Sequence record: SRR20825006_1225
DNA: 64,000 nucleotides
Reading direction: 5' to 3' (one strand)
The notes beneath the pieces are model-generated. The model was not told the DNA's origin. It did no database searches and saw nothing but the letters and a program-made list of their open reading frames with translations. Both the position numbers and the translations under genes were made by a program. Of the stretch, positions 15,860 to 28,867 are shown one piece after another. How positions within the stretch are numbered: position 1 is the first letter of the stretch; the number at the start of each line of letters is the position of its first letter.

Positions 15860-18439
15860 TCATTTAACAACTAGATTTATAATTCTACCAGGTACAAATA
15901 TTTCTTTTACTAACGTAGAGTTAGTGAGATATTCGCTAATCCTTGCATCATTTTTTGCGATATCAAGTACGTAATCCTTATCCCTAGCTTTATCGGATGA
16001 AATCTCGATGTTGGCTCGTACTTTCCCATTTATTTGAACAGGATAAATCACTGAGTCAGCTTTCAAGTACTCTTCGTTAAACACTGGCCAGATTGAATAC
16101 GCTAGCTCTTCAGTTTGACCTAGTTTTTTCCATATTTCTTCAGCAATATGTGGAGCGTAAGGCGAAAGTAGTTGTATAAACTTGGTAGCTATATCTTTTG
16201 GCATATTTTCCCAGGAATATGCTTCGTTTACAAAAATCATAAGAGCCGAAATACCTGTATTGAATCTCATTTCTTCAATATCTTCGGACACTTTTTTTAT
16301 CGCTTCGTGTAAAGCTTTAAGTTGTTCTTTCGTTCCTTGAGCATTGTCTACAGTTTCTTTTAGGCTATTCGTATCTTCATCAACAAGAAGTCTCCACGCC
16401 CTATTCAAGAATCTATTAACACCTTCTACACCTTTTGTACTCCAAGGTTTAACTTGTTCAAGAGGTCCCATAAACATTTCATATAACCGCAATGAATCTG
16501 CACCATATTCATCAATTATTATATCAGGATTAATTACGTTACCACGGCTTTTGGACATCTTGTGAGCTCTCGCTTCAATTTTTATATCCGTACCTTTCAG
16601 TACAAAACCTGTCCCCTTTTTCTCAACTTCATCTTCTGAAAGTTTAATAAGTTCAGAATCGGTAGTACCATCATTGGAACTAATCCATTCTCCATCTTTT
16701 TTGAAACCAGTATACTCCATTTCACCAAGAATCATTCCTTGGTTTACAAGCTTCTGAAAAGGTTCTTTGGTTGATACAATTCCGCAATCGAAAAGTACTT
16801 TGTGCCAAAAACGAGCATAAAGCAAATGTAATACGGCATGTTCTGCACCGCCTACGTATAAATCAACGGGCATCCAATATTTCTCGTAATCTGGATCAAC
16901 AGGGCCACCATCGTAACCTGGTGAAATGTATCGTAAATAGTACCAACAAGAGCCTGCCCATTGTGGCATGGTATTAGTTTCTCGTTTTGCTGGTTTTCCT
17001 GTATCTGGATCTGTAGTATTTACCCATTCAGTAGCATTTGCTAACGGAGGCTCGCCATCGCCAGTTGGTTGATATTTCTCAACTTCTGGAAGTAGTAATG
17101 GCAATTCGGACTCTTTTACTGCTTTTGCTTCGCCATCAACATGAATGATTGGGAATGGCTCACCCCAATAGCGTTGACGAGAAAAAAGCCAATCACGCAA
17201 TTTGAAATTAATAGCCTTCTCTCCCGCACCTCGCTCCTCTAACCAAGGAATAATCTTGTCTTTTCCTTCTTCAATAGATAATCCGTTTAGGAAGTCACTA
17301 TTTATAGCTATACCATTTCCAGTATAAGCTTTTCCATCAAAGCCTTCTTCAGGCTGAACGGTTCTAATAATTGGTAATTCATACTTCTCCGCAAATTCCC
17401 AATCTCGTTCATCTTGTCCAGGAACAGCCATAATTGCACCCGTTCCATAACTAGCTAATACGTAGTCTGCTACCCAAATTGGCACTTCTTTACCATTGGC
17501 TGGGTTTATTGCATAAGCTCCAGTAAACACACCCGTTTTTTCTTTCGAGAGTTCTTGCCTATCAAGGTCAGACTTCAACGAGGCTTGGTGCTTGTATTCT
17601 TCTACACGTTCCTTTTGTTCATCTGTAGTTATAATATTTACTAATTGGTGCTCAGGTGCTAGTACCATGTAAGTAGCGCCAAATATGGTATCTGGGCGAG
17701 TTGTAAACACTCGAATCTTATGTTCAGTCTTTCCAATCTGGAAGTCTATTTCTGCCCCAACAGATTTACCAATCCAATTGCGCTGCATATCTTTTAAAGA
17801 CTCTGGCCAATCTAAGTCTTCCAAATCTTCTAGTAAACGTTCTGCGTACGCCGTAATTTTCAAGACCCATTGGCGCATTGGTTTCCGTATAACAGGAAAT
17901 CCACCCACTTCACTTTTACCATCAATAACTTCTTCGTTTGCTAAAACAGTTCCCAATTCTGGGCACCAGTTAACAGCAACTTCGTCTTCGTAAGCTAAAC
18001 CTCGCTCAAAAAGCTTTAGGAATATCCACTGCGTCCATTTAAAATAATCAGGATCGGTAGTATTTACTTCTCTATCCCAATCGTAGCTAAAGCCAATTGC
18101 TTGTAACTGTTCTCTAAATCTAGCAACATTTATTTCTGTTGTTGATCGTGGATGAGTTCCAGTTTTTACTGCGTATTGTTCTGCGGGGAGCCCAAAAGCG
18201 TCCCAACCCATAGGGTGTAAAACGTTAAACCCTTTCATTCTTTTGTACCGCGCAATAATGTCGGTAGCTGTATAACCTTCTGGATGTCCAACGTGCAACC
18301 CTGACCCACTTGGGTATGGAAACATGTCTAGCACATAAAATTTGGGCTTTGAAGTATCAGTTGGCGTTATAAAAGTCTTATTTTCTAGCCAATACTTTTG
18401 CCACTTAGTTTCTATTTCTTTTGGGTTATAAGAATGCAT
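15860..18439 (-). CDS. leuS: Leucine--tRNA ligase
   Basis: '[14 protein letters not shown]' HIGH-type motif, KMSKS, editing-domain 'FTTRPDT' and 'GTGAIMAVP'. Confidence 0.98.
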
Positions 18440-18516
18440 ATTTAACTTGATTTTACTTTATTTCTGGCTATCATCCCTTTAGTTATTAAAAAGAATTGCC
18501 CACTATATAAACGAAG

Positions 18517-19518
18517 ATGAATTTACGGTTACTAACGCTTTCATGCTTACTCATCTTTTCAGTTTTTTTGGTACCCAAAAATGGGTTTTCTCAGGATGCG
18601 AATGCCGAGTTTGGATACTTCAAGCTGATTACAAATGTATCAAATAACTTTGTTATTGTAGATAATAAGTCGGACCAAGTGTTTGAATTATCCAAAATAG
18701 ACAGTATCAAGTTAGAACCAGGTAAACATCATTTTTTTATAATTGTGAAAGATGCTCCTGATTTTGAAACTGAATTAACAATAGAGCCAGGCTCTACAAA
18801 AAAATATTATCGGAACATTGTCTCCTTTTCTAAATCCAGTAAGAGCTCTTACGATCGATTTAAAGCAGGCTATAATTTTACTTTTATTACAGATCCAAAC
18901 TCTATCATCTATATAAATGATGAAAAAGTAGGCATGGGTGATTATTCAGGTTTTCTTTTAAATGGTGAAAATAGTGTTAAGGCCGTTCACCCAGAGTTTG
19001 GGGAACTAAAAAAGAGTGTTACCATAACATCTTATGAAAACTCCTTTTTACAGAGATATAATACTAAGCCCAAATTACTTTCTTCAGGATTAAAATGGCT
19101 ACCCAGTGTAGCTTATTTTGCAAAGGGCGAGAAAACTAAGGGCGCAATTACTTTAGCTGGATTAGGTGCAACATTTAGTGGCATTATATTACAACGGAAT
19201 AATTTTAATGATAATAAACTAAAGTTTGATGAAGCCACTCGTAACTATAATAATTCTACCGACGTTTTTGATGTAAAAAAATATCGAGAAGAAGTGGTTA
19301 AATATCAGGATGCGATGGATTCAAACAATAAAAACATAACCTTGTTTGCGATAGCAGGTGCTTTGGTTTATGGAGCCTCAACCCTTGATGGCATCAGAAA
19401 ACCGCGACAAGGGTATAATGTATCTGACACAATTAATATAAAGCCGACTTTTGCTCAACTACCAACTAACGGCACAAATCATTATGGGTTTGGTTTTAAA
19501 ATGTCATTAACGCGCTAG
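18517..19518 (+). CDS. Exported PEGA-like + DUF5683-like membrane-hairpin protein (family A, copy 1)
   Basis: Signal peptide; two beta-rich repeats; 'LP.VAYF.KGEKTKG' then hydrophobic helix, coiled coil, hydrophobic helix; terminal amphipathic strand 'YGFGFKMSL'. Confidence 0.6.
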   Translation: MNLRLLTLSCLLIFSVFLVPKNGFSQDANAEFGYFKLITNVSNNFVIVDNKSDQVFELSKIDSIKLEPGKHHFFIIVKDAPDFETELTIEPGSTKKYYRNIVSFSKSSKSSYDRFKAGYNFTFITDPNSIIYINDEKVGMGDYSGFLLNGENSVKAVHPEFGELKKSVTITSYENSFLQRYNTKPKLLSSGLKWLPSVAYFAKGEKTKGAITLAGLGATFSGIILQRNNFNDNKLKFDEATRNYNNSTDVFDVKKYREEVVKYQDAMDSNNKNITLFAIAGALVYGASTLDGIRKPRQGYNVSDTINIKPTFAQLPTNGTNHYGFGFKMSLTR

Positions 19519-19522
19519 AGAT

Positions 19523-20524
19523 ATGAAGAATTTATTTATACTATTTACTATCCTCATTATCTTTACTAGTTGTAAAGAAGTTCCAACATTTCAGAATGAA
19601 AATATTTACGATCCTGAAAGTAGTAGTTACATATTAGGAAGCCCTTCTAATTTAACATTAAATACCTACTCAAGTTATACCGCAGTTTCATGGAGCAAAT
19701 TACCGTCTAAATATATTACTGGGTATCAGTTATTTCGATCTCATATCGATTCTCTACATTATGAAGAAATAGCAACAGTACCTCGAGAGGGGAATAACTA
19801 TAATGACCTAGGTGCGGGCAATCCAATTAATGTCTATTACAAATTAAGAGCTTTTCTTATTCAAGAGTCTGATACAATTTTTTCAGAGCCCATTTATTCA
19901 AAATTAAATCGAACCTTCTATCGTATTCATGATGCTATTTTAATAAATGAAAAGGATATTGAATTTAGAATTGATCATGGTTTTACTGAGGCTAATGATA
20001 TAACTATTGAACAGAAGGTTGGGGATGGTGAATTCGAACTCTTGACCAAATTTAAAGCAAACCGATATACGGATATGATCTACTCTTATTCGGAGTTACC
20101 AACGGAAGAGATTACCTATAGAGCTTTTGTTGAAAACAATTATGAAAGAACTGAATATTATTTGACTAAAGCTTTTACTGATCTAACTATAATTCCCAAA
20201 CCTCTTGAAATAATAGAGGGTGACGAAAGTTCTGTAGTAATTAAGATAGATACCACTTCATATGTAGATGAAATATTCTTATACAAATATGTTTATGATA
20301 TAGATGAACAAGATGTGGATAGAATTCTTATAGCTCGCTACCCTAGCTCACAAACCATGATTAAACTAGAAGGCCTAAGCAACCTGACTGACTATGACAA
20401 TAAATTTGAACTGCATGCACGAAAAGGCGCTTTCATCTCCCGGAATTATACACCAATAACAATATATAACTACGATGGCTCGTCTTGGACCCTTTCGACC
20501 TCCTATTACTTCGATGAACCTTAA
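19523..20524 (+). CDS. Lipoprotein with Fn3-like domains (family B, short form)
   Basis: Lipobox 'FTSC'; 'PSNLTL...VSW...ITGYQLFRS...YYKLRAF' Fn3 pattern. Confidence 0.7.
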   Translation: MKNLFILFTILIIFTSCKEVPTFQNENIYDPESSSYILGSPSNLTLNTYSSYTAVSWSKLPSKYITGYQLFRSHIDSLHYEEIATVPREGNNYNDLGAGNPINVYYKLRAFLIQESDTIFSEPIYSKLNRTFYRIHDAILINEKDIEFRIDHGFTEANDITIEQKVGDGEFELLTKFKANRYTDMIYSYSELPTEEITYRAFVENNYERTEYYLTKAFTDLTIIPKPLEIIEGDESSVVIKIDTTSYVDEIFLYKYVYDIDEQDVDRILIARYPSSQTMIKLEGLSNLTDYDNKFELHARKGAFISRNYTPITIYNYDGSSWTLSTSYYFDEP

Positions 20525-20531
20525 AATCATT

Positions 20532-21536
20532 ATGAAAAAGGACCATAGAACATACCATTTATTTTCTTTCATTTGCGCATTTACACTGCTCTTTTGTGTG
20601 GCAAACAGTGCTCAGGCACAAACTGGCTATGTGAAATTTGAAAGCAATGCAGATTCTTTTAAAGTTGTCGTAGACTACAATTACTTGGAGATTTATACAG
20701 TTTCTAGTGGTGATTCTATCGAAATAAAGCAAGGCTTGCATAATCTCCGTCTATCCACTCCTTTTACTCAGGATCGCTTTATTAGAATTAATGTTATGCC
20801 CGAATCAACTAAGCTTGTTTACTATACGGTAGAAGAGCTTCCAATTAGCATTGATAATCTCGAAAACAATGTTTCTGCAGCACAATACTATGGAGCTACT
20901 TTAATCCTTTTAACCGACGAGGATACCGACATCTTTTATGAAGACAGTTATGTGGGAACAGGTTACGCTATGATAAATGCTTTAAATGGCAACAGATTAA
21001 TTCGTTATGAAAATAAATATGGCTACAAAAAGAATGTCAATTATAGGATAAAGACAAGTCGAGTTACTGCTGCCTCCCAATTTTTGAAACCCACAAAAAA
21101 GGTAACTCAAAGTGCAGCTATTTTCCCAGGAGCTAGCCAATTGCTAAAAAGGCAACGCGTAAAGGCTTCGATTTTTTTCACTGGAACTGCAGGAGGAGCT
21201 TTAATAGCCATCATCAATAACGTAAAGTTAAACTCAGCCATCGAAGAGTACGACAACACCTACTTTTTTTATAAAAATGCTACCGATGAAGCTTATGCAT
21301 CCTTATTAGGAGATGAGTTAAAAAATTTAGCTGATAATTCAAAAAAGTATGAACGAAATAGAAATATAGCACTTGGCACAACTCTTGCCTTCTATTTATA
21401 TAACATTTATGATGGATTAACCTCTATCCCAAAAGGTGGATTTAAAGACGATAAAGGTCTTGATTTCTATTTCTCTGACTCTGATCTAACCGGTGGTGGA
21501 ATGAGTTCTACCGCAACAATTAAGTATAATTTTTGA
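20532..21536 (+). CDS. Exported PEGA-like + DUF5683-like membrane-hairpin protein (family A, copy 2); ATG at 20532 preferred
   Basis: Signal peptide ending 'AQA-Q'; colinear similarity with 18517..19518; 'AAIFPGASQLLKRQRVKA'; ends 'TATIKYNF'. Confidence 0.6.
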   Translation: MKKDHRTYHLFSFICAFTLLFCVANSAQAQTGYVKFESNADSFKVVVDYNYLEIYTVSSGDSIEIKQGLHNLRLSTPFTQDRFIRINVMPESTKLVYYTVEELPISIDNLENNVSAAQYYGATLILLTDEDTDIFYEDSYVGTGYAMINALNGNRLIRYENKYGYKKNVNYRIKTSRVTAASQFLKPTKKVTQSAAIFPGASQLLKRQRVKASIFFTGTAGGALIAIINNVKLNSAIEEYDNTYFFYKNATDEAYASLLGDELKNLADNSKKYERNRNIALGTTLAFYLYNIYDGLTSIPKGGFKDDKGLDFYFSDSDLTGGGMSSTATIKYNF

Positions 21537-23707
21537 CGATGCTAAAAGTACTAATCAGTGTAATAACACTAATCCTTATTTTTTCTAGCTGCAGTACTGC
21601 CCCCGAACTTAAGCGGGATAACGAACATGATTCTGAATCAGAAACCTTTATACCAAAGTCTGCTAAAGGTCAGAACTATTTAATGGATAGTAAAAAAAAT
21701 GTCATTGTTGGTTGGATTAACACCTCTACTTATATTACTAGCCATAAGATTTACAAAGCCATAGGTAATGACACTACATTTAAATTATTAGCAACACTTC
21801 CTCCTAATGCTACCAGCTATTTAGATGATTCCAAAGAACTAGCTTTTCCAACTTCCTACAAATTAATTTCTGTATCTGGAAATTCTCAAAGTGAAGAATT
21901 ATTGATTCCTATTAACTTTGGTAGAATTACCTCTATCAATGGTGAGATCAATAAAAATGGAACCCCTGTAATAACTTGGACTGACGATATAGACTCGTTT
22001 GATGGCTTTCTAATTCAAATAAGTACAGATTTAGACACCACATTTAGAACCATTAAGACGGTAAATACTACAACACAGACTTATCAACTTAACACCATAT
22101 TACCGGGGTTTACAAATCGCCTTTTAGTAAAACCATTCTTAATTTTTAAAGGAGATACAACTACTCTCGATGGAGCCACATATCGGTTTGATACTGGTGC
22201 TCCAAGTAATTTACATGCCGAATTAGTTGCAGAAGATAGCGTTCGCCTAACTTGGGTGGATAATTCGGACTTTGAAGACGGTTTTAAAATTTATCGAGAT
22301 AACAATAGTACCATAATAGCAGAAGTCCCACCGAATACTACTGAATATACATGGTTCAATGATTTTAGAATAAATTCGAAACATGAATTTGGTATTCAGG
22401 GCTTTAAGAGTGACTTGGTTAGTATAATTGATCCAACTTCTTTTACTGTAAACGTAGCCTCACCAATCATCACAAATCAAGATTCTAACACAGAAAATAC
22501 CTTCACTTTTAACATTGGTGAGCCCTCAGGCATAAATAGGGGGTATACCGTTTTGCGAAGTTCAAATGGCGGTTTATATACTACTATTGGAAATGTATCA
22601 AAGAGTGTGAAAAGTTTCACCGATACAAACTTGAATAAAGTGTACATGTATTCCTACAAAGTTGAAACTAAACTTTCTTCTGAATCTGAAAGTATTTCAA
22701 CCATTTATGGCTTACATCCTACAGAAAGCTCAACTATTGAAGTTGATAATAAGCTTTACAGTGCGAATGAAGAAAAACTCTCACATTTAACTACACAATC
22801 CTCTCTTATCTTACGTGTAAAAAGTACTTCAAATTCAGGGTCTATACTTTCAGTTTATAACAGAGCTACTCAGAGTCTTGAGAAAGACATTGAATTTGAA
22901 ACAACTCCTTCTATATACTTTCCAAGAATTTCAGCTTCTGAAAATTCTATTGTATTCCTCAGTTCTGCTGTTTCAAGTAAAGTTCATACTATTTCAGTTC
23001 TTGATTATAACACAGAAGCTCTAATAGACACGTACGATTTTGAACTTAAAGAAGGCATTACTTCTTTAATCTATGACGTTAAGCTACTTTCTGATGATAA
23101 TTATGTGTTAATATCGAGCAATAGAGGCCTTTTTATTTACAATAGACAATTGAGAACACTTGCGCTCTTTAAAGAGCTTCAGGAAGGTGGGGTTTTCTAC
23201 AAGCTTGCATTTTCCGATAACGGTTCTTTTTTACTGGCTTTTGATAACCATACTATTTTCAAGTATCGAATAGATAATGGAAACTCTCTCACTCAAGTTT
23301 CCGAAAGTAACGACTTTCCTAATAATACATTCTCAATCACTAATAATGCCAGTTTCAGCTCAACTGGCGACACCGTTGCAGTAATAATAAATGGCTCTTA
23401 TTTCATAAAGGATTTATCGACTGGGATTACGCTTTTTGATTCTGATTATAATTCATCACCAACAACACATTCTATTGAATATTTAGATGACAACAGTGTC
23501 GCTATTATTGGCAACAATTCTTTTAAAATCTTAAATCGAGGTAGGGTAACAAAATCAATTTCTCTTAACTCTACATTACGAGGAAGGCTTAAATATTTCA
23601 GAGATACTAAAACTCTAGTTGAATTCAGGAATTATCTTTATTCATCACCTCTTAATTCAGTCGTTTATCATAAGCTGAAATACCAATGGCGTAATATTAA
23701 CCTATAA
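21533..23707 (+). CDS. Lipoprotein with tandem Fn3-like domains and probable C-terminal beta-propeller (family B); start may be the ATG at 21539
   Basis: Lipobox 'FSSC'; 'APSNLHAELVAEDSVRLTWVDNSDFEDGFKIYR'; blade-like repeats such as 'LAFSDNGSFLLAF'. Confidence 0.7.
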   Translation: MTMLKVLISVITLILIFSSCSTAPELKRDNEHDSESETFIPKSAKGQNYLMDSKKNVIVGWINTSTYITSHKIYKAIGNDTTFKLLATLPPNATSYLDDSKELAFPTSYKLISVSGNSQSEELLIPINFGRITSINGEINKNGTPVITWTDDIDSFDGFLIQISTDLDTTFRTIKTVNTTTQTYQLNTILPGFTNRLLVKPFLIFKGDTTTLDGATYRFDTGAPSNLHAELVAEDSVRLTWVDNSDFEDGFKIYRDNNSTIIAEVPPNTTEYTWFNDFRINSKHEFGIQGFKSDLVSIIDPTSFTVNVASPIITNQDSNTENTFTFNIGEPSGINRGYTVLRSSNGGLYTTIGNVSKSVKSFTDTNLNKVYMYSYKVETKLSSESESISTIYGLHPTESSTIEVDNKLYSANEEKLSHLTTQSSLILRVKSTSNSGSILSVYNRATQSLEKDIEFETTPSIYFPRISASENSIVFLSSAVSSKVHTISVLDYNTEALIDTYDFELKEGITSLIYDVKLLSDDNYVLISSNRGLFIYNRQLRTLALFKELQEGGVFYKLAFSDNGSFLLAFDNHTIFKYRIDNGNSLTQVSESNDFPNNTFSITNNASFSSTGDTVAVIINGSYFIKDLSTGITLFDSDYNSSPTTHSIEYLDDNSVAIIGNNSFKILNRGRVTKSISLNSTLRGRLKYFRDTKTLVEFRNYLYSSPLNSVVYHKLKYQWRNINL

Positions 23708-23751
23708 GGTTTGATTACTCTCATTTATGAGCCAAATAAAGTACTATTTAT

Positions 23752-25938
23752 ATGAGTTTTAAAACCATACCACTATTCGCTCTAATAGCTTTTATCGCTA
23801 GCTGTAGTACTGCTCCAGAATTTAAGAGGGATAATGCGAATGACCCTAAATCAGATAATTACAAATTGGTTCCTCCTTCAGGAGCAAACTATCAGCTTGA
23901 TGAAAGTGGAAATGTTGTGCTTTTCTGGGAGGACAAATCCGACTTTGAATCTGGGTATAGAGTATTCAAATCATTGGGTGAGAATGGTGAGTTTACTTTA
24001 TTAGCAGAACTAGATAAAAAATCAGACTCCTTTATTGATTCCTCAAAAGTATTCGCATACCCAACAAAATATCATATTGTTTCCTTCTATAACCAGAACG
24101 TCTCCGATACTTTAACTATTGACATCGATTTTGGAAAAGTTTCAGCATTAAATGCCGAGTTCAGTGATGATTACGAAGAGATTAAGTTTTCATGGAATGA
24201 TAATGTTTTCGAGGCTGATGGTTTTATTTTATACAGTAAAATAGATTCTACTTCTGAATCTAAATTTATTACAACATTCCCGAGCTCTCCTAAACACAAT
24301 ACAATTCAAACTCCTAAAATTGGTTATATTCATGAATACAGCCTAACCCCATTTAAAATTTTTGAAGCTAATACTACTACACTACAAAAAAGTGACTCCT
24401 CAATAATAAAATTAGGACCCAAAGATTTAGACCTCAACTTGACTACTGTAGACTCTTTACAAATTACCTGGAAAGATTTATCTGATTCTGAAGAACATTT
24501 TCTGATTACTTTAACAGACCATTCAGGAACTGAAAGCTTTGAAGTTGAAAAAAACAATACAACTTATACAATACATAGAGCATTTCTAAAAGATGAAGAG
24601 GTTGTTGTTACTTTAAAAGGTGTATACAACTCTTTTTCTTCAGAGTACATTACTAAAGACTTTAAAATGTCTTTACAGCCACCCTCTATAAAACGCTTCG
24701 ATTACCGTGTTTCTGATGACGCTACCATCGTTATAATATCCGATTCAACGCAAACAAGAAGAGAAAAGAAAATATACCGTAAAACGAATAATTCAGGATT
24801 TGTTGAAATCGGCACTGTTGCAAAAGGTGATTCTGTGTTCATCGATAATTCCTTGGATAAATCAAATATATATTCGTACTCAGTCTCAGCCCCACTTTCT
24901 AGTACTAGCCCCAACAAATCGATACGCTTTACGAACATATTAACTCCAATTAATAAAGTGGAGAGCCGAAAAAGAACAAGCTTTAATACTTCATTCTTAG
25001 CCCACAATCCAGAAAAAAATATACTTGCCTACCTAACCACAGATGATCAATGGGTTCTTTATGTGGTTGACTATATAAATGGGACTACTTCAAAAGAGAT
25101 TAGTCTAGAATCTAGAATGTTAAATATTACTATAGATAACGATGTAAATACAATAGTTGCATCTTCGCTTGTTGATAAAAATAAAATGTACATAATTGAT
25201 ATAAATTCTGAATTAGTTGACTCTTTATCATTTGGAACATCTGACATTCTTGAACTTAATTTTTCAGGCACCTCAAATAATGTTTTTGCCCTTATACAGA
25301 AACCCGATGAAAATATTGAATTAATCTCTATTGATTTAGAAGCTAAAACTACAGAGCTACTTGAAACCCTTAATACCAAAGATCGATCAATTAAACTTCA
25401 TATAAATGATGCCAAAACAAAACTAGTTGTCAAATATACGGTCGAGGGTTCTTTAGAAGGAACTTTTATATATAGATTTTATAATCTTACGGAGACAGGT
25501 ATTGAGTTCTATAATGAGCAAACCACTGTTGAAAATTTAAACTCAACTTTTACTTTTTCAGCGAATTTAGACACAACAATTATTGCCACAAAAAACGAGA
25601 ATGAACTCATCATGTACGACTTCAATTCTCAGAGTAATGTATTTAAAGGTAGTTTCAGCATAAGCGATAACTACTTTTTTAATAGCACCACATTACTCAA
25701 TAATGGGACCTTTTATCTTCAAGACGAACAAAGCGCTTTTGTTGTTGATACAAAACTTAGTGGAAATAAGATTTCTCAGCAGCTAGATTTTAGCGGTATT
25801 CCCATTGCTGGCGAAGTACTTTGGAATAATGAATCCAATTATCTCATAGATTTTAGAAGGTCTTTTGACCCCAATATAATGTCATATTATACTGTACTAA
25901 TAGTTGAACAAGGTTGGGTAGAAGTAATTGATAACTAA
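23752..25938 (+). CDS. Lipoprotein with tandem Fn3-like domains and probable C-terminal beta-propeller (family B, paralog of 21533)
   Basis: Lipobox 'IASC'; 'VLFWEDKSDFESGYRVFK', 'LQITWKDLSDSEEHF'; 728 aa versus 724 aa and colinear with the upstream gene. Confidence 0.7.
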   Translation: MSFKTIPLFALIAFIASCSTAPEFKRDNANDPKSDNYKLVPPSGANYQLDESGNVVLFWEDKSDFESGYRVFKSLGENGEFTLLAELDKKSDSFIDSSKVFAYPTKYHIVSFYNQNVSDTLTIDIDFGKVSALNAEFSDDYEEIKFSWNDNVFEADGFILYSKIDSTSESKFITTFPSSPKHNTIQTPKIGYIHEYSLTPFKIFEANTTTLQKSDSSIIKLGPKDLDLNLTTVDSLQITWKDLSDSEEHFLITLTDHSGTESFEVEKNNTTYTIHRAFLKDEEVVVTLKGVYNSFSSEYITKDFKMSLQPPSIKRFDYRVSDDATIVIISDSTQTRREKKIYRKTNNSGFVEIGTVAKGDSVFIDNSLDKSNIYSYSVSAPLSSTSPNKSIRFTNILTPINKVESRKRTSFNTSFLAHNPEKNILAYLTTDDQWVLYVVDYINGTTSKEISLESRMLNITIDNDVNTIVASSLVDKNKMYIIDINSELVDSLSFGTSDILELNFSGTSNNVFALIQKPDENIELISIDLEAKTTELLETLNTKDRSIKLHINDAKTKLVVKYTVEGSLEGTFIYRFYNLTETGIEFYNEQTTVENLNSTFTFSANLDTTIIATKNENELIMYDFNSQSNVFKGSFSISDNYFFNSTTLLNNGTFYLQDEQSAFVVDTKLSGNKISQQLDFSGIPIAGEVLWNNESNYLIDFRRSFDPNIMSYYTVLIVEQGWVEVIDN

Positions 25939-25961
25939 AATGAGATTTTTCAAATTGTCGT

Positions 25962-25983
25962 TTAAATGGAGAGAGCCATTTAA
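25962..25983. terminator. Hairpin between convergent genes, possible terminator
   Basis: TTAAATGG-agagag-CCATTTAA; no clear U-tract. Confidence 0.4.
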
Positions 25984-26003
25984 CAACCAAGATTAGTAAT
26001 CAA

Positions 26004-27044
26004 TCAAATAACACCCAGTCCATCGGGTTTCCACCATAAATCGGGAGTTTGAGCTTTACTCAGGAATTCATTACTCACCCCTTCTATTGCTCCGTTAGTG
26101 GTATACACTGTTTGTAGTGCACTTCCATATTTAGTAGCTAGTTCGCGTACTTTATCTTCATTTCCTTCAACCCAGTGAAGCGTAAAATCGAGTTCTGGAA
26201 ATTCTTCTGTTTCCTGAATCAAGAAATCGTTCATCCAAGCTTGTTCTCGCTCAATCGCCTTGTTATAAGCAAATTGATGCGCCAATATTTCCTTTGGTTT
26301 ATTTAGCTGGGGGTGTTTCAACCAAAAGGATTCCACATAGTCCTGAAAATGGCATTTAAGCTTCCCAAATCGAATTGGGCTTACAACTACTGCCACCGAT
26401 CGACATCCGCGCCCTCCGTATCTAAAAACAGCCTCTACTAAGTCTTCCATGCTTTGCTTGCTCTCATCTGGAATATACGCCATAGAAAATTTAGCACTTC
26501 GCATAACCCATTCAACACCTTCCGCAACAGATTTTTGCGCAATCGCAATTTCCTTCACCGTATCGATAGAACTTTCTGCACCAGCAAATAAGACCTTGTC
26601 AGCTTTGATACCAGCAAATTGATTGAAATCGGTGGAGTATTGAATGTTATTCTCTAGGGGAAATTCATCCAGTTTCTTGAGAAAACTTTGCAACAGGTAC
26701 GGATCTTTTCGCGAGAGTTTACCAAAATAATCGGCTCCAGAAAGTATAGTTCCTAGCGCATCTTGAAATCCAACCAAAGGGAGGTTCCCCGCATGTAAAC
26801 ATAGAACTTTAGAACCAAAACTATTCTTTGTTTCACTAAGTCCTGCTCGATTTGCCCACTCTTCAATTTGACCAGATTCTATATTCTGCTTTAGGGCTCT
26901 AATCTGAAATTTAATGTCTTCATAAGAAAACAGCTCTTCATCAACCGTTTGTTCAATGGCTTTTTTTAGAACTAGGTTATCAGGCTGCAACCACTCTTTA
27001 GCTGCCTTAGCAATTGTTGAGATATGAGATTTCATCGAGCGCAT
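26004..27044 (-). CDS. LuxC-like acyl-CoA/acyl-protein reductase (aldehyde dehydrogenase fold, short form)
   Basis: 'HAGNLPLVGFQD', 'KLSRKD', catalytic Cys motif 'FRYGGRGCRSV'. Confidence 0.8.
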   Translation of the reverse strand: MRSMKSHISTIAKAAKEWLQPDNLVLKKAIEQTVDEELFSYEDIKFQIRALKQNIESGQIEEWANRAGLSETKNSFGSKVLCLHAGNLPLVGFQDALGTILSGADYFGKLSRKDPYLLQSFLKKLDEFPLENNIQYSTDFNQFAGIKADKVLFAGAESSIDTVKEIAIAQKSVAEGVEWVMRSAKFSMAYIPDESKQSMEDLVEAVFRYGGRGCRSVAVVVSPIRFGKLKCHFQDYVESFWLKHPQLNKPKEILAHQFAYNKAIEREQAWMNDFLIQETEEFPELDFTLHWVEGNEDKVRELATKYGSALQTVYTTNGAIEGVSNEFLSKAQTPDLWWKPDGLGVI

Positions 27045-28030
27045 TAATCTTGATCTATTAAGAAATTACAGCCACGTAAATTCTGTGGACTCCATCTGCC
27101 TAACACTTTAAATCGCCCACCGTCTCCCATCACGCCTTTATCTCCCGTTAAAATAAAAGAGCATGAGTTCATGTTCGCCAAATCCATCACTCCAATCATT
27201 CCTTCCGTTCCATTTTCTACAGTTTCCATTGGGTTTTCTGGATTTCGGATAGAAACATTCATCCAAGGCACGCATTCAAACCATTCATCACCCAAACTAT
27301 ATGCCTGGCTCAGTAATTCAGACATTCCATACTCTGAATGAATTTGAGTTTTTGGTAAAGCAAAACCATCCGAAAGTTTTTGATGTAGCTGAGTCTTAGT
27401 CATCTCGCGACGATGAGTTTTCATCCCTCCCGTTTCCATTACTATGGAATTACTAGGAATTTGAACTTCGCTAATTTCCAGCAAATCGAGCAAACCAAAA
27501 GCCGCACCAAAAAGCATTAACTTCTTCCCTGATGAAGTAACCTTATCTAATTCATTCTGCGATAAGGTTTTATTTAACTCTAAGAATCTACTTAATCCAG
27601 ATTTGTCTCCATCAATCAGAACATTGAGCATCCAAACTAGTGATGAATGTGGATTGGCGTTGTAGCCAGGTGTATAAGCCCAGATTACATAATTATCCAG
27701 TGCATAAAAATGCTTCATCCCTGCAATTACCGATTTCTTGTACATATAGGTATCTAGCAAATAATGAGTGCTTTTTTGCATCCCAGAAGTGCCACTACTC
27801 TGAAAATAAATCAGCTTATCAAAGTTAATTTCCGAAAGATTTTCTACCGTTATTATCTGCTTTTCTTTAAAAGCTTGAATGGGTAACAGTGGGATTTCAG
27901 AGTAATCTTTAACCTTCTGAATACCGAGCGCCTTACAAAACCGCTGGTAAACGGGATTATTCTCAAATTGAAACTTAAAAGCGGCTATAGCTTTTTCGTT
28001 GAAAGTAATTTGTGGTTGAAAAATATTCAT
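27044..28030 (-). CDS. LuxE-like acyl-protein synthetase (LuxE/PaaK-like adenylating enzyme)
   Basis: 'FQSSGTSG' adenylation loop, 'METGGMK', 'HSEYGMSELLSQAY', 'TGDKG', C-terminal 'GR...LRGCN'. Confidence 0.85.
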   Translation of the reverse strand: MNIFQPQITFNEKAIAAFKFQFENNPVYQRFCKALGIQKVKDYSEIPLLPIQAFKEKQIITVENLSEINFDKLIYFQSSGTSGMQKSTHYLLDTYMYKKSVIAGMKHFYALDNYVIWAYTPGYNANPHSSLVWMLNVLIDGDKSGLSRFLELNKTLSQNELDKVTSSGKKLMLFGAAFGLLDLLEISEVQIPSNSIVMETGGMKTHRREMTKTQLHQKLSDGFALPKTQIHSEYGMSELLSQAYSLGDEWFECVPWMNVSIRNPENPMETVENGTEGMIGVMDLANMNSCSFILTGDKGVMGDGGRFKVLGRWSPQNLRGCNFLIDQD

Positions 28031-28033
28031 TAT

Positions 28034-28867
28034 CTATTCTTTTGGGATAGTGATAGATATCAATTTATCCTCACTTAACACAAATAGTAGCTCTTCAGTT
28101 GCCACAAAATCTTTAATGGATTTTACAGCCTTCACTTCGATAAAATCCTTTCTTTCCATTCCACTTTTGAAAAGAGTATTTCCTACCGAAATCCACATTC
28201 CATTCTTACTTTTCCAGAATGTTTGGGCTCCTTCAGCTGGATAGAAACTCTCATAAAAACCATTTTCCGAAAGCTGATGAATTACATCCACTTTTTTGTC
28301 TAAAATGAAAATCTTATTCTCACTCAGTTGTAAACCTGAGATATCTTTTACTTCCGATGGAATTGGAATTTCATCTAAAAAAGAGCCTGATTCATTGAGC
28401 TTTATCAGCTTTTTTGAGCGTTTATCATAGAAGAATAATTCCCCCACTTCATTCACCCCTAACCAAGTCGGTTCAATACGAGACATATCTCTAAAAGCTG
28501 TAAAGTTCTTTATGGAACTCAATAATTGCCAGTGTTTATCAAATACTTGGATACGATTATTTCGTAAATCAGAAACAAATATTTTCAATCCATTAGTGGC
28601 ATCAATATCAAAAGGAGAATTGAATTGGTAGTCGCTAGAGCCTTTATTCCCAAAAGTCTGAAGAACTTGACCAGAGCGATCTAACTGGAGAACTCGACTT
28701 TTACCTTGCTCAATGATATACAAGGCTTGCTGAGTTACAAAAAGGGCAGAAGGTTCATCCAACCCAGAGTATAAAACATTGGTAGAATTTGAATTCGCAA
28801 CGGATTGTGCATTCGCCGACGAAATGCTCGCTAGCAGTAATAGTGCAATAATCCGAAGTGTTTTCAT
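28034..28867 (-). CDS. Exported NHL-repeat beta-propeller protein
   Basis: Signal peptide; 'QFNSPFDIDA...IFVSDLRNNRIQVFD'. Confidence 0.8.
   Translation of the reverse strand: MKTLRIIALLLLASISSANAQSVANSNSTNVLYSGLDEPSALFVTQQALYIIEQGKSRVLQLDRSGQVLQTFGNKGSSDYQFNSPFDIDATNGLKIFVSDLRNNRIQVFDKHWQLLSSIKNFTAFRDMSRIEPTWLGVNEVGELFFYDKRSKKLIKLNESGSFLDEIPIPSEVKDISGLQLSENKIFILDKKVDVIHQLSENGFYESFYPAEGAQTFWKSKNGMWISVGNTLFKSGMERKDFIEVKAVKSIKDFVATEELLFVLSEDKLISITIPKE

Follow-up and report, generated by a model that had tools for sequence, protein, structure and literature searches.

The 64,000-nucleotide stretch of sequence record SRR20825006_1225 that we analyzed (the window) carries, at positions 18517-25938, a cassette of five plus-strand open reading frames (ORFs) in the order A-B-A-B-B. 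Family A genes encode DUF5683-like proteins and family B genes encode lipoproteins: A1 (18517-19518), B1 (19523-20524), A2 (20532-21536, counted from the ATG at 20532 in a frame that at its longest opens at 20475), B2 (21533-23707, from a TTG) and B3 (23752-25938). The spacers between them are 4 bp, 7 bp, a 4-bp overlap of A2 and B2, and 44 bp, in agreement with the tight co-directional packing reported in a preliminary description of this DNA. That description had also judged the cassette AT-rich by eye, which is borne out: its G+C content is 33.5%, versus 37.3% in the remainder of the window, and lies below that of all 85 same-length windows taken elsewhere in it (minimum 35.4%). Both flanking genes are on the minus strand, a divergent gene that we take to be leuS and a convergent one that we take to be luxC-like. 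Promoter and terminator scans gave results at chance level (31 versus 32.6 and 6 versus 3.8, respectively). The nearest genome, G001, has the same cassette plus a fourth B gene.

The A proteins, A1 of 333 and A2 of 334 residues, look like accessory paralogues of the LptT/DUF5683 type, and A1 combines a signal peptide, PEGA-like domains, a helical hairpin and a C-terminal beta-hairpin. Calls of signal peptides and lipoboxes throughout rest on visual inspection or a custom script rather than on SignalP. In A2, the mature chain starts at about 20619 and opens with two beta-sandwich (PEGA/transthyretin-like) domains, probably periplasmic (20622-21086), which are supported by the AlphaFold2 model, by PEGA matches and by a VIA match to the transthyretin-like domain of carboxypeptidase D (Z 8.7). 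These are followed by two short helices with a P-G-x-S-Q motif, hydrophobic segment 1, a polar coiled coil and hydrophobic segment 2 (21096-21419), and finally by an amphipathic beta-hairpin ending in Phe (21459-21533). The model has a mean predicted local distance difference test (pLDDT) score of 94 and shows the two beta-sandwiches, short helices at residues 160-168 and 172-176, long helices at 180-219 and 224-268, a low-confidence tail and no single-chain beta-barrel. Throughout the family, each long helix contains one hydrophobic segment, with the polar coiled coil between the two. The charge asymmetry of the hairpin is mild: Lys and Arg are enriched on the PEGA side of both helices, a poor fit to an inner-membrane topology, but the segment before helix 2 is basic as well.

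A2 passes the curated Pfam cut-off for DUF5683 (PF18935; 40.1 bits versus 26.7, E 4.7e-10). A1 scores 20 bits (E 7e-4), which is below that cut-off, yet it is homologous to A2 (23% identity over 230 residues, E 9e-9). Among 130 aligned A-family members, 122 match DUF5683 and 40 match PEGA at E 0.05 or better; the N-termini can be PEGA, caspase plus PEGA, or TPR, whereas the hairpin is constant. An NCBIfam search returned nothing below E 0.01, and a sequence search for solved relatives found none, its single match standing at E 0.24. Fold searches in libraries to April 2026, which predate the preprint on LptT discussed below, yielded matches to generic structures only, namely hairpins (best Z 10.3) and beta-sandwiches. 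Family A is multi-copy and patchy; at E 1e-40 it is detected in 58 of the order's 221 genomes. The nearest ESM Atlas cluster of A2 is mostly Balneolota, and 1,494 clusters at 50% identity match the family at E 0.001 or better, a number that includes canonical DUF5683 members.

The B proteins have in common a peptide directly behind the lipid Cys, with the motif R-x-N-x-x-D-P-x-S-x-x-F/Y, which we call the tether. It spans 19571-19642 in B1, 21590-21661 in B2 and 23803-23874 in B3, each time starting at the lipid Cys codon, and it occurs in three of the eight lipoproteins in the window, exactly the three of the cassette. Over 96 A-B pairs, the tether is conserved at P5 (59%), F7 (59%), R9 (71%), N11 (93%), P15 (87%), S17 (69%) and F/Y20 (96%), while the 100% conservation of D14 is partly an effect of the selection rule. 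What follows the tether varies widely. In the AlphaFold2 model of B3 (728 residues; mean pLDDT 90), the extended N-terminus leads into four Fn3 domains (about 23878-24888), and a WDR5-like beta-propeller follows (about 24916-25923); Foldseek matches the model to fibronectin and WDR5. B2 (724 residues) has a Pfam fn3 match in its stalk and probably a propeller as well. The Fn3/propeller architecture proposed earlier for family B is thus supported by the model for the long type of B. B1, at 333 residues, is too short for a B3-type stalk plus propeller. Mature B proteins range from 115 to 745 residues in 144 non-redundant relatives. The domains found in 60 scanned proteins (51 B-type and 9 neighbors) include Fn3, Kelch, WD40, FGE-sulfatase, cohesin and CarboxypepD_reg, and many proteins have no Pfam match. 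Across pairs, the hairpin of A and the tether of B stay constant and the passengers differ.

The division of the cassette into two paralogous families stands, with one restriction. B2 and B3 are 29% identical over 433 residues, but the similarity of B1 to them is confined to its first ~95 residues (E 6e-8 and 9e-8), so the B genes have a common N-terminal module rather than one full architecture. The cassette had also been read as a duplicated A+B unit; the paralogy is real but old. A recent tandem duplication is rejected by the low identity of A1 and A2 and by their placement in different deep subclades of the tree. Elsewhere, A genes can be split or truncated: a metagenome contig has a frameshift-like break (L139:1820-2840), and partial copies occur at L085:4729-5046 and L052:6367-7212 (in G001 and G065). 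Such copies are in line with rapid turnover.

A-B is a recurring two-gene unit, consisting of a DUF5683-like protein and a variable tagged lipoprotein. We surveyed 61 genomes of the class by profile searches for A and B; because related genomes are not independent, the counts are descriptive only. A B gene lies within 250 bp downstream of 40 of 46 strong A matches and within 2.5 kb of 44; of the remaining two, one is cut by the contig end and the other is followed by a motif variant. By contrast, none of 59 weak or canonical DUF5683 matches has a motif lipoprotein downstream. All 19 B-bearing genomes contain A, and 19 of the 20 A-bearing genomes contain B, the twentieth having a motif variant next to its A. 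In genomes left out of the B profile, 20 of 24 A genes have a B. Conversely, 53 of 62 B matches have an A no more than 6 kb upstream. Nine do not: two are orphans whose genomes encode A at another site; five, all weak, precede a different DUF5683 match by about 6 kb (one of these loci was inspected); and of the remaining two, also weak, one is no lipoprotein and the other contains an in-frame stop.

Other samplings agree. In five whole genomes, all 15 tether matches fall inside A clusters and all 11 A matches have a B directly downstream, and in 12 metagenome loci each A with downstream sequence is followed by a B-type lipoprotein. Among 158 non-redundant A ORFs, the next gene is a B in 123 by script and 6 by eye, some other gene in 4, and uncalled in 13. 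A motif-independent lipobox call found the tether in 109 of 126 lipoproteins adjoining an accessory hairpin gene. Pairs are present at several unlinked sites per genome, and in family f60 (L223, L224, L225, L227) B adjoins A on the opposite strand, as convergent and divergent pairs.

What kind of protein A might be is suggested by recent work on the Bacteroidota lipopolysaccharide (LPS) translocon, which is described as exporting surface lipoproteins (10.64898/2026.10.03.756453). In the same preprint, LptT is presented as an essential, conserved outer-membrane protein, unlinked to other lpt genes, that binds the LptD gate and organizes a subcomplex holding a surface lipoprotein; its helices comprise two long ones that protrude outward and two short half-membrane ones, and the loop behind helix 2 is packed against the beta-taco of LptD. 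The main text of the preprint gives no locus tag for LptT that we could find. We infer that LptT is the parB-linked DUF5683 protein, BT_4000 in Bacteroides, because BT_4000 is annotated as DUF5683 in a supplementary table (PMC12578637) and is reported to co-purify with LptA and LptZ of the Lpt machinery (PMC13692018), and because the two DUF5683 paralogues of genome G052 are 63% identical, as compared with the 62% given for LptT and LptT2 (10.64898/2026.10.03.756453).

The A module matches 30 canonical DUF5683 proteins with an HH probability of 99.1% (E 4.8e-19) over 148 columns, C-terminal hairpin included, and its helix layout, compared by description only, fits the published account of LptT. 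These results tie the cassette to LptT/DUF5683, whereas it had earlier been assigned to no named system. A is nonetheless a divergent DUF5683 subfamily, a relative but probably not an orthologue of the inferred LptT, because it forms its own clade, because G001 keeps its own canonical copy after parA-parB, and because the loop after helix 2 differs. In particular, A and canonical rows separate at 100/99 support in a subsampled tree (33 A and 16 canonical among 58 rows). The loop reads DA.VdAhL..Fd in canonical proteins and DG..kPk.GYR in A, which keeps the R-N/D and Y..N..D of helix 2. Core DUF5683 members are single-copy genes placed after parA-parB.

The similarities among A proteins follow those among the tethers of their neighbors. 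Pairwise A similarity correlates with tether similarity at rho 0.40 (partial 0.36), versus 0.23 (partial 0.13) for the Fn3 domain behind the tether and 0.08-0.27 for any 23-column window of that domain. None of 300 permutations matched the tether value, although the test overstates the effect because kin share neighbors. In the tree, A subclades carry matching tether types. This correlation fits cognate recognition, but part of it could come from proximity alone. Together with the adjacency across the searched genomes and its persistence after inversion of B, it upholds the earlier suggestion of a two-partner module.

The tether also extends beyond Balneolales. In a second class, 14 of 71 genomes hold 16 tether matches, two of them training rows. 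Of the other 14, four lie directly after a PEGA or hairpin gene (one ended by the contig end), six head a sigma-54 operon, a further one lies on a contig piece without an A, and the last three do not qualify as motif lipoproteins. The six operons continue with a sigma-54 activator, a kinase-PEGA protein, a secreted protein and a hairpin gene. A strict DNA pattern run over all GTDB genomes gave 80 stretches, by title mostly records of the Fibrobacterota-Chlorobiota-Bacteroidota (FCB) group, of which 23 lack the motif in an open frame of at least 90 codons and 48 are lipoproteins by script; three of nine follow-up regions also lack the motif. Each of the 10 genomes tested contains 3-16 DUF5683 matches.

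Our favored reading, to which we give an even chance, makes A an outer-membrane receptor with the LptT fold; it would bind B through the peptide next to the lipid and so position a variable, probably surface-exposed passenger. A would be exported by Sec, and its long hairpin would span the outer membrane, leaving the coiled-coil tip outside and the short helices and PEGA-like domains on the periplasmic side, a topology transferred from LptT. B would be lipidated, would reach the surface by the general Lpt route, and would dock on A through its conserved first ~22 residues. The unit would then hold the passenger, an Fn3 stalk with a propeller of the WD40 or Kelch type at its end, or another set of domains, probably at the cell surface, with additional and orphan B genes using a common A. 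The envelope-embedded scaffold of the preliminary description fits, while the stand-alone translocator it offered as an alternative is less likely, since the closest characterized relative, the inferred LptT, is a monomeric helical subunit of the LptD translocon and not a pore.

Several observations weigh against this reading, apart from the overstated permutation test. Inter-protein covariation by mutual information over the 96 pairs reached maximum Z values of 7.0 and 7.4, versus 6.8 and 7.5 for neighbor-swapped controls. Tether residues 11-20 are ordered in the B3 monomer model (pLDDT 79), so the tether may partly be a self-packing cap. By eye, B1-B3 show no evident K-(D/E)2 or Q-A-(D/E)2 behind the Cys of the kind that defines the lipoprotein export signal (LES), so that surface exposure is not assured; the net charge of 96 B proteins is negative over positions +2 to +6 in 62% and over +2 to +20 in 93%. 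In addition, the next gene is a second A for 12 of the 158 A ORFs, and some A genes stand alone (L226; L185:5500-6387). Outside Balneolales, the tether-hairpin association is wide but looser: only 1 of the 48 pattern lipoproteins has a hairpin gene within 3.5 kb, and in extended loci such a gene lies 4-6 kb downstream in four of six and is absent from two.

The covariation result also bears on another explanation, in which A and B are merely co-inherited neighbors in an insertion hot spot and the motif serves to cap the first Fn3 domain structurally. The closeness of covariation to the controls is consistent with this, as are the low G+C content and the location in a variable leuS-luxC slot, which sometimes collects genes that we take to be PIN-type and transposase-like. 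We consider it very improbable all the same, because pairs occur at several unlinked sites per genome and survive inversion, because the tether is found ahead of non-Fn3 domains also, and because most of the Fn3 matches listed from other classes lack it.

A more serious alternative follows from the relationship to LptT. The A proteins could be substrate-specific LptT paralogues that work at the lateral gate of LptD, either in place of LptT or alongside it. There they would pass their cognate B through the LPS translocon, and the tether would act as a private signal for export. The full-length homology of A to the inferred LptT module points in this direction, as does the position of the tether, which is that of the LES. 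In F. johnsoniae, moreover, the 62%-identical paralogue LptT2 is reported in the purified complex, with either copy supporting viability, and surface lipoproteins are described as differing in their need for accessory subunits (10.64898/2026.10.03.756453). Any such adaptor would use a shared barrel, since five of five genomes tested have a single LptD_2 match each. However, the LptD-packing loop is replaced in A, A and canonical proteins split into separate clades with the parB-linked gene retained in G001, and the available text of the preprint gives no export role for LptT itself (10.64898/2026.10.03.756453). We therefore hold this to be possible but clearly less probable than peptide docking. 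Equally tentative is its broader form, that FCB bacteria expanded LptT into interchangeable adaptors reading private N-x-x-D-P peptides, a second modular sorting code above the general LES; such a set might possibly couple export to caspase-, kinase- or TPR-bearing periplasmic modules.

The C-terminal hairpin raises another alternative, that A forms an oligomeric pore or flippase of its own, built from the C-terminal beta-hairpins or the helices of several chains in the manner of Borrelia P13, and exports B without LptD. The tail of A is an alternating amphipathic strand, presumably beta-signal-like, that ends in Phe in 81 of the 130 aligned members and is left unfolded in the A2 monomer model. 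P13 (PF05628) resembles A by eye in its short P/G helix, two hydrophobic helices and C-terminal beta-hairpin, although it has neither PEGA domains nor a coiled coil, and other helical outer-membrane proteins are described as homo-oligomers (10.64898/2026.10.03.756453). A pore of this kind seems unlikely to us, because canonical DUF5683 proteins end in the same hairpin while LptT is described as not homo-oligomeric (10.64898/2026.10.03.756453), and because L117, an A adjoining a motif lipoprotein, lacks the hairpin. Homology of A to P13 is not supported either, the profile probability being below 1%, though the P13 profile has only 7 rows and remote kinship could escape it. P13 is described as a channel whose C-terminus is cleaved by CtpA (PMC5758756), and a predicted periplasmic protease, BT_0154, is reported to co-purify with the Lpt machinery (PMC13692018). 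The hairpin of DUF5683 proteins, which goes unmentioned in the available account of LptT (10.64898/2026.10.03.756453), may by analogy be a cleaved export signal.

The loci outside Balneolales lead to a further alternative, in which B is oriented toward the periplasm and the A-B pair forms a scaffold or sensor in the envelope with a link to signaling. A sigma-54 activator lies downstream of 39 of 49 motif lipoproteins there, often together with a kinase, and some A relatives have caspase domains; B has no clear LES, and the top covariation pairs, which are not significant, involve A residues on the periplasmic side. On the other hand, the leuS cassettes inspected in Balneolales have no linked regulator, and B diverges fast (a search with B3 gave only 5 matches), varies in copy number and swaps its tip domains. 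Such behavior is more typical of surface proteins, and we regard a periplasmic role as quite improbable. Across the FCB group, a conserved operon (L081, L115, L116, L118, L120, L121, L125, L355, L359-L361) consists of a motif lipoprotein, a GAF sigma-54 activator, a PEGA-bearing Ser/Thr kinase, in most cases a secreted protein with a type IX secretion system-like tail, and a TPR or other DUF5683-like hairpin gene. This operon looks like an envelope signaling module that makes use of this tether and hairpin as well. Proteins that combine caspase (Peptidase_C14) and PEGA domains are also linked to motif lipoproteins (L119:3869-6238, L124:3-1481, L128:1421-3349), two of them with a C-terminal hairpin.

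The A-B pair can be compared with several named systems. A shares with LptT/LptT2 the set of long and short helices, profile homology over the whole module, the existence of paralogues and a role beside outer-membrane lipoproteins, but it adds folded PEGA-like domains and differs in its loop after helix 2, its separate clade, its patchy and multi-copy distribution, and the cognate lipoprotein gene adjoining it. It belongs by profile to DUF5683, whose core members are by contrast single-copy, parA-parB-linked and without a motif lipoprotein downstream. LptQ-LptR, described as a membrane anchor and a surface lipoprotein encoded by adjacent genes (10.64898/2026.10.03.756453), resembles A-B in pairing an outer-membrane protein with its anchored lipoprotein; LptQ is, however, an 8-stranded beta-barrel that binds via extracellular loops, whereas A is helical and its partner hypervariable. 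The Bacteroidota LES, a general signal of the form K-(D/E)2 or Q-A-(D/E)2 (PMC5080379), is like the tether a short signal beside the lipid cysteine, but the tether is longer, with an N-x-x-D-P motif, and is tied to one partner family. Slam is reported to be absent from Bacteroidota (10.64898/2026.10.03.756453).

Slam and two-partner secretion have, as we understand them, a dedicated outer-membrane partner that is a single-chain beta-barrel encoded beside its cargo. A-B has the same gene arrangement, but A has no such barrel. In our literature search, neither the A-B pair nor the tether motif turned up in any paper, though supplements of LptT-related preprints may list some paralogues, and no function was reported for DUF5683 by that name. 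Papers listed for PEGA, lipoprotein and outer membrane were only proteomic or annotation surveys.

Surface export of lipoproteins in Bacteroidota-related bacteria has only just been traced to an expanded LPS translocon, of which the helical LptT is an essential subunit. A large accessory family that has the LptT module and is genetically coupled to lipoproteins with a peptide tag gives a direct way to approach the ligands of this fold. If the docking model is correct, A would be a rare helical outer-membrane receptor for a short peptide ligand and A-B a candidate two-part surface-display tool. The model would also serve as a working hypothesis for other DUF5683-like genes beside envelope modules.

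Some further features of these loci can be added. G001 has two more divergent DUF5683-like genes with long inter-helix insertions (L011:6858-7802, L013:4040-4819); neither adjoins a motif lipoprotein, and one lies downstream of large outer-membrane genes. One A subtype is usually without a B after it (L185:5500-6387, L193:7330-9230, L196:507-1409, L199:2046-3035, L226:751-1644) and may act in trans or differently. Three of the f60 clusters end, by eye, in a small gene resembling an extracytoplasmic function sigma factor. Next to the cassette, at 26004-28867 of the window, lie genes that we take to be luxC-like and luxE-like and a gene for an NHL-type exported protein; no luciferase gene was recognized beside them, and the arrangement is conserved in many relatives. 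The leuS-luxC slot itself (15860-27044 of the window; loci L009, L048, L052, L060, L086, L090-L092, L185, L199, L226) is a hot spot, its content at orthologous loci ranging from a lone A to at least 10 A/B genes.

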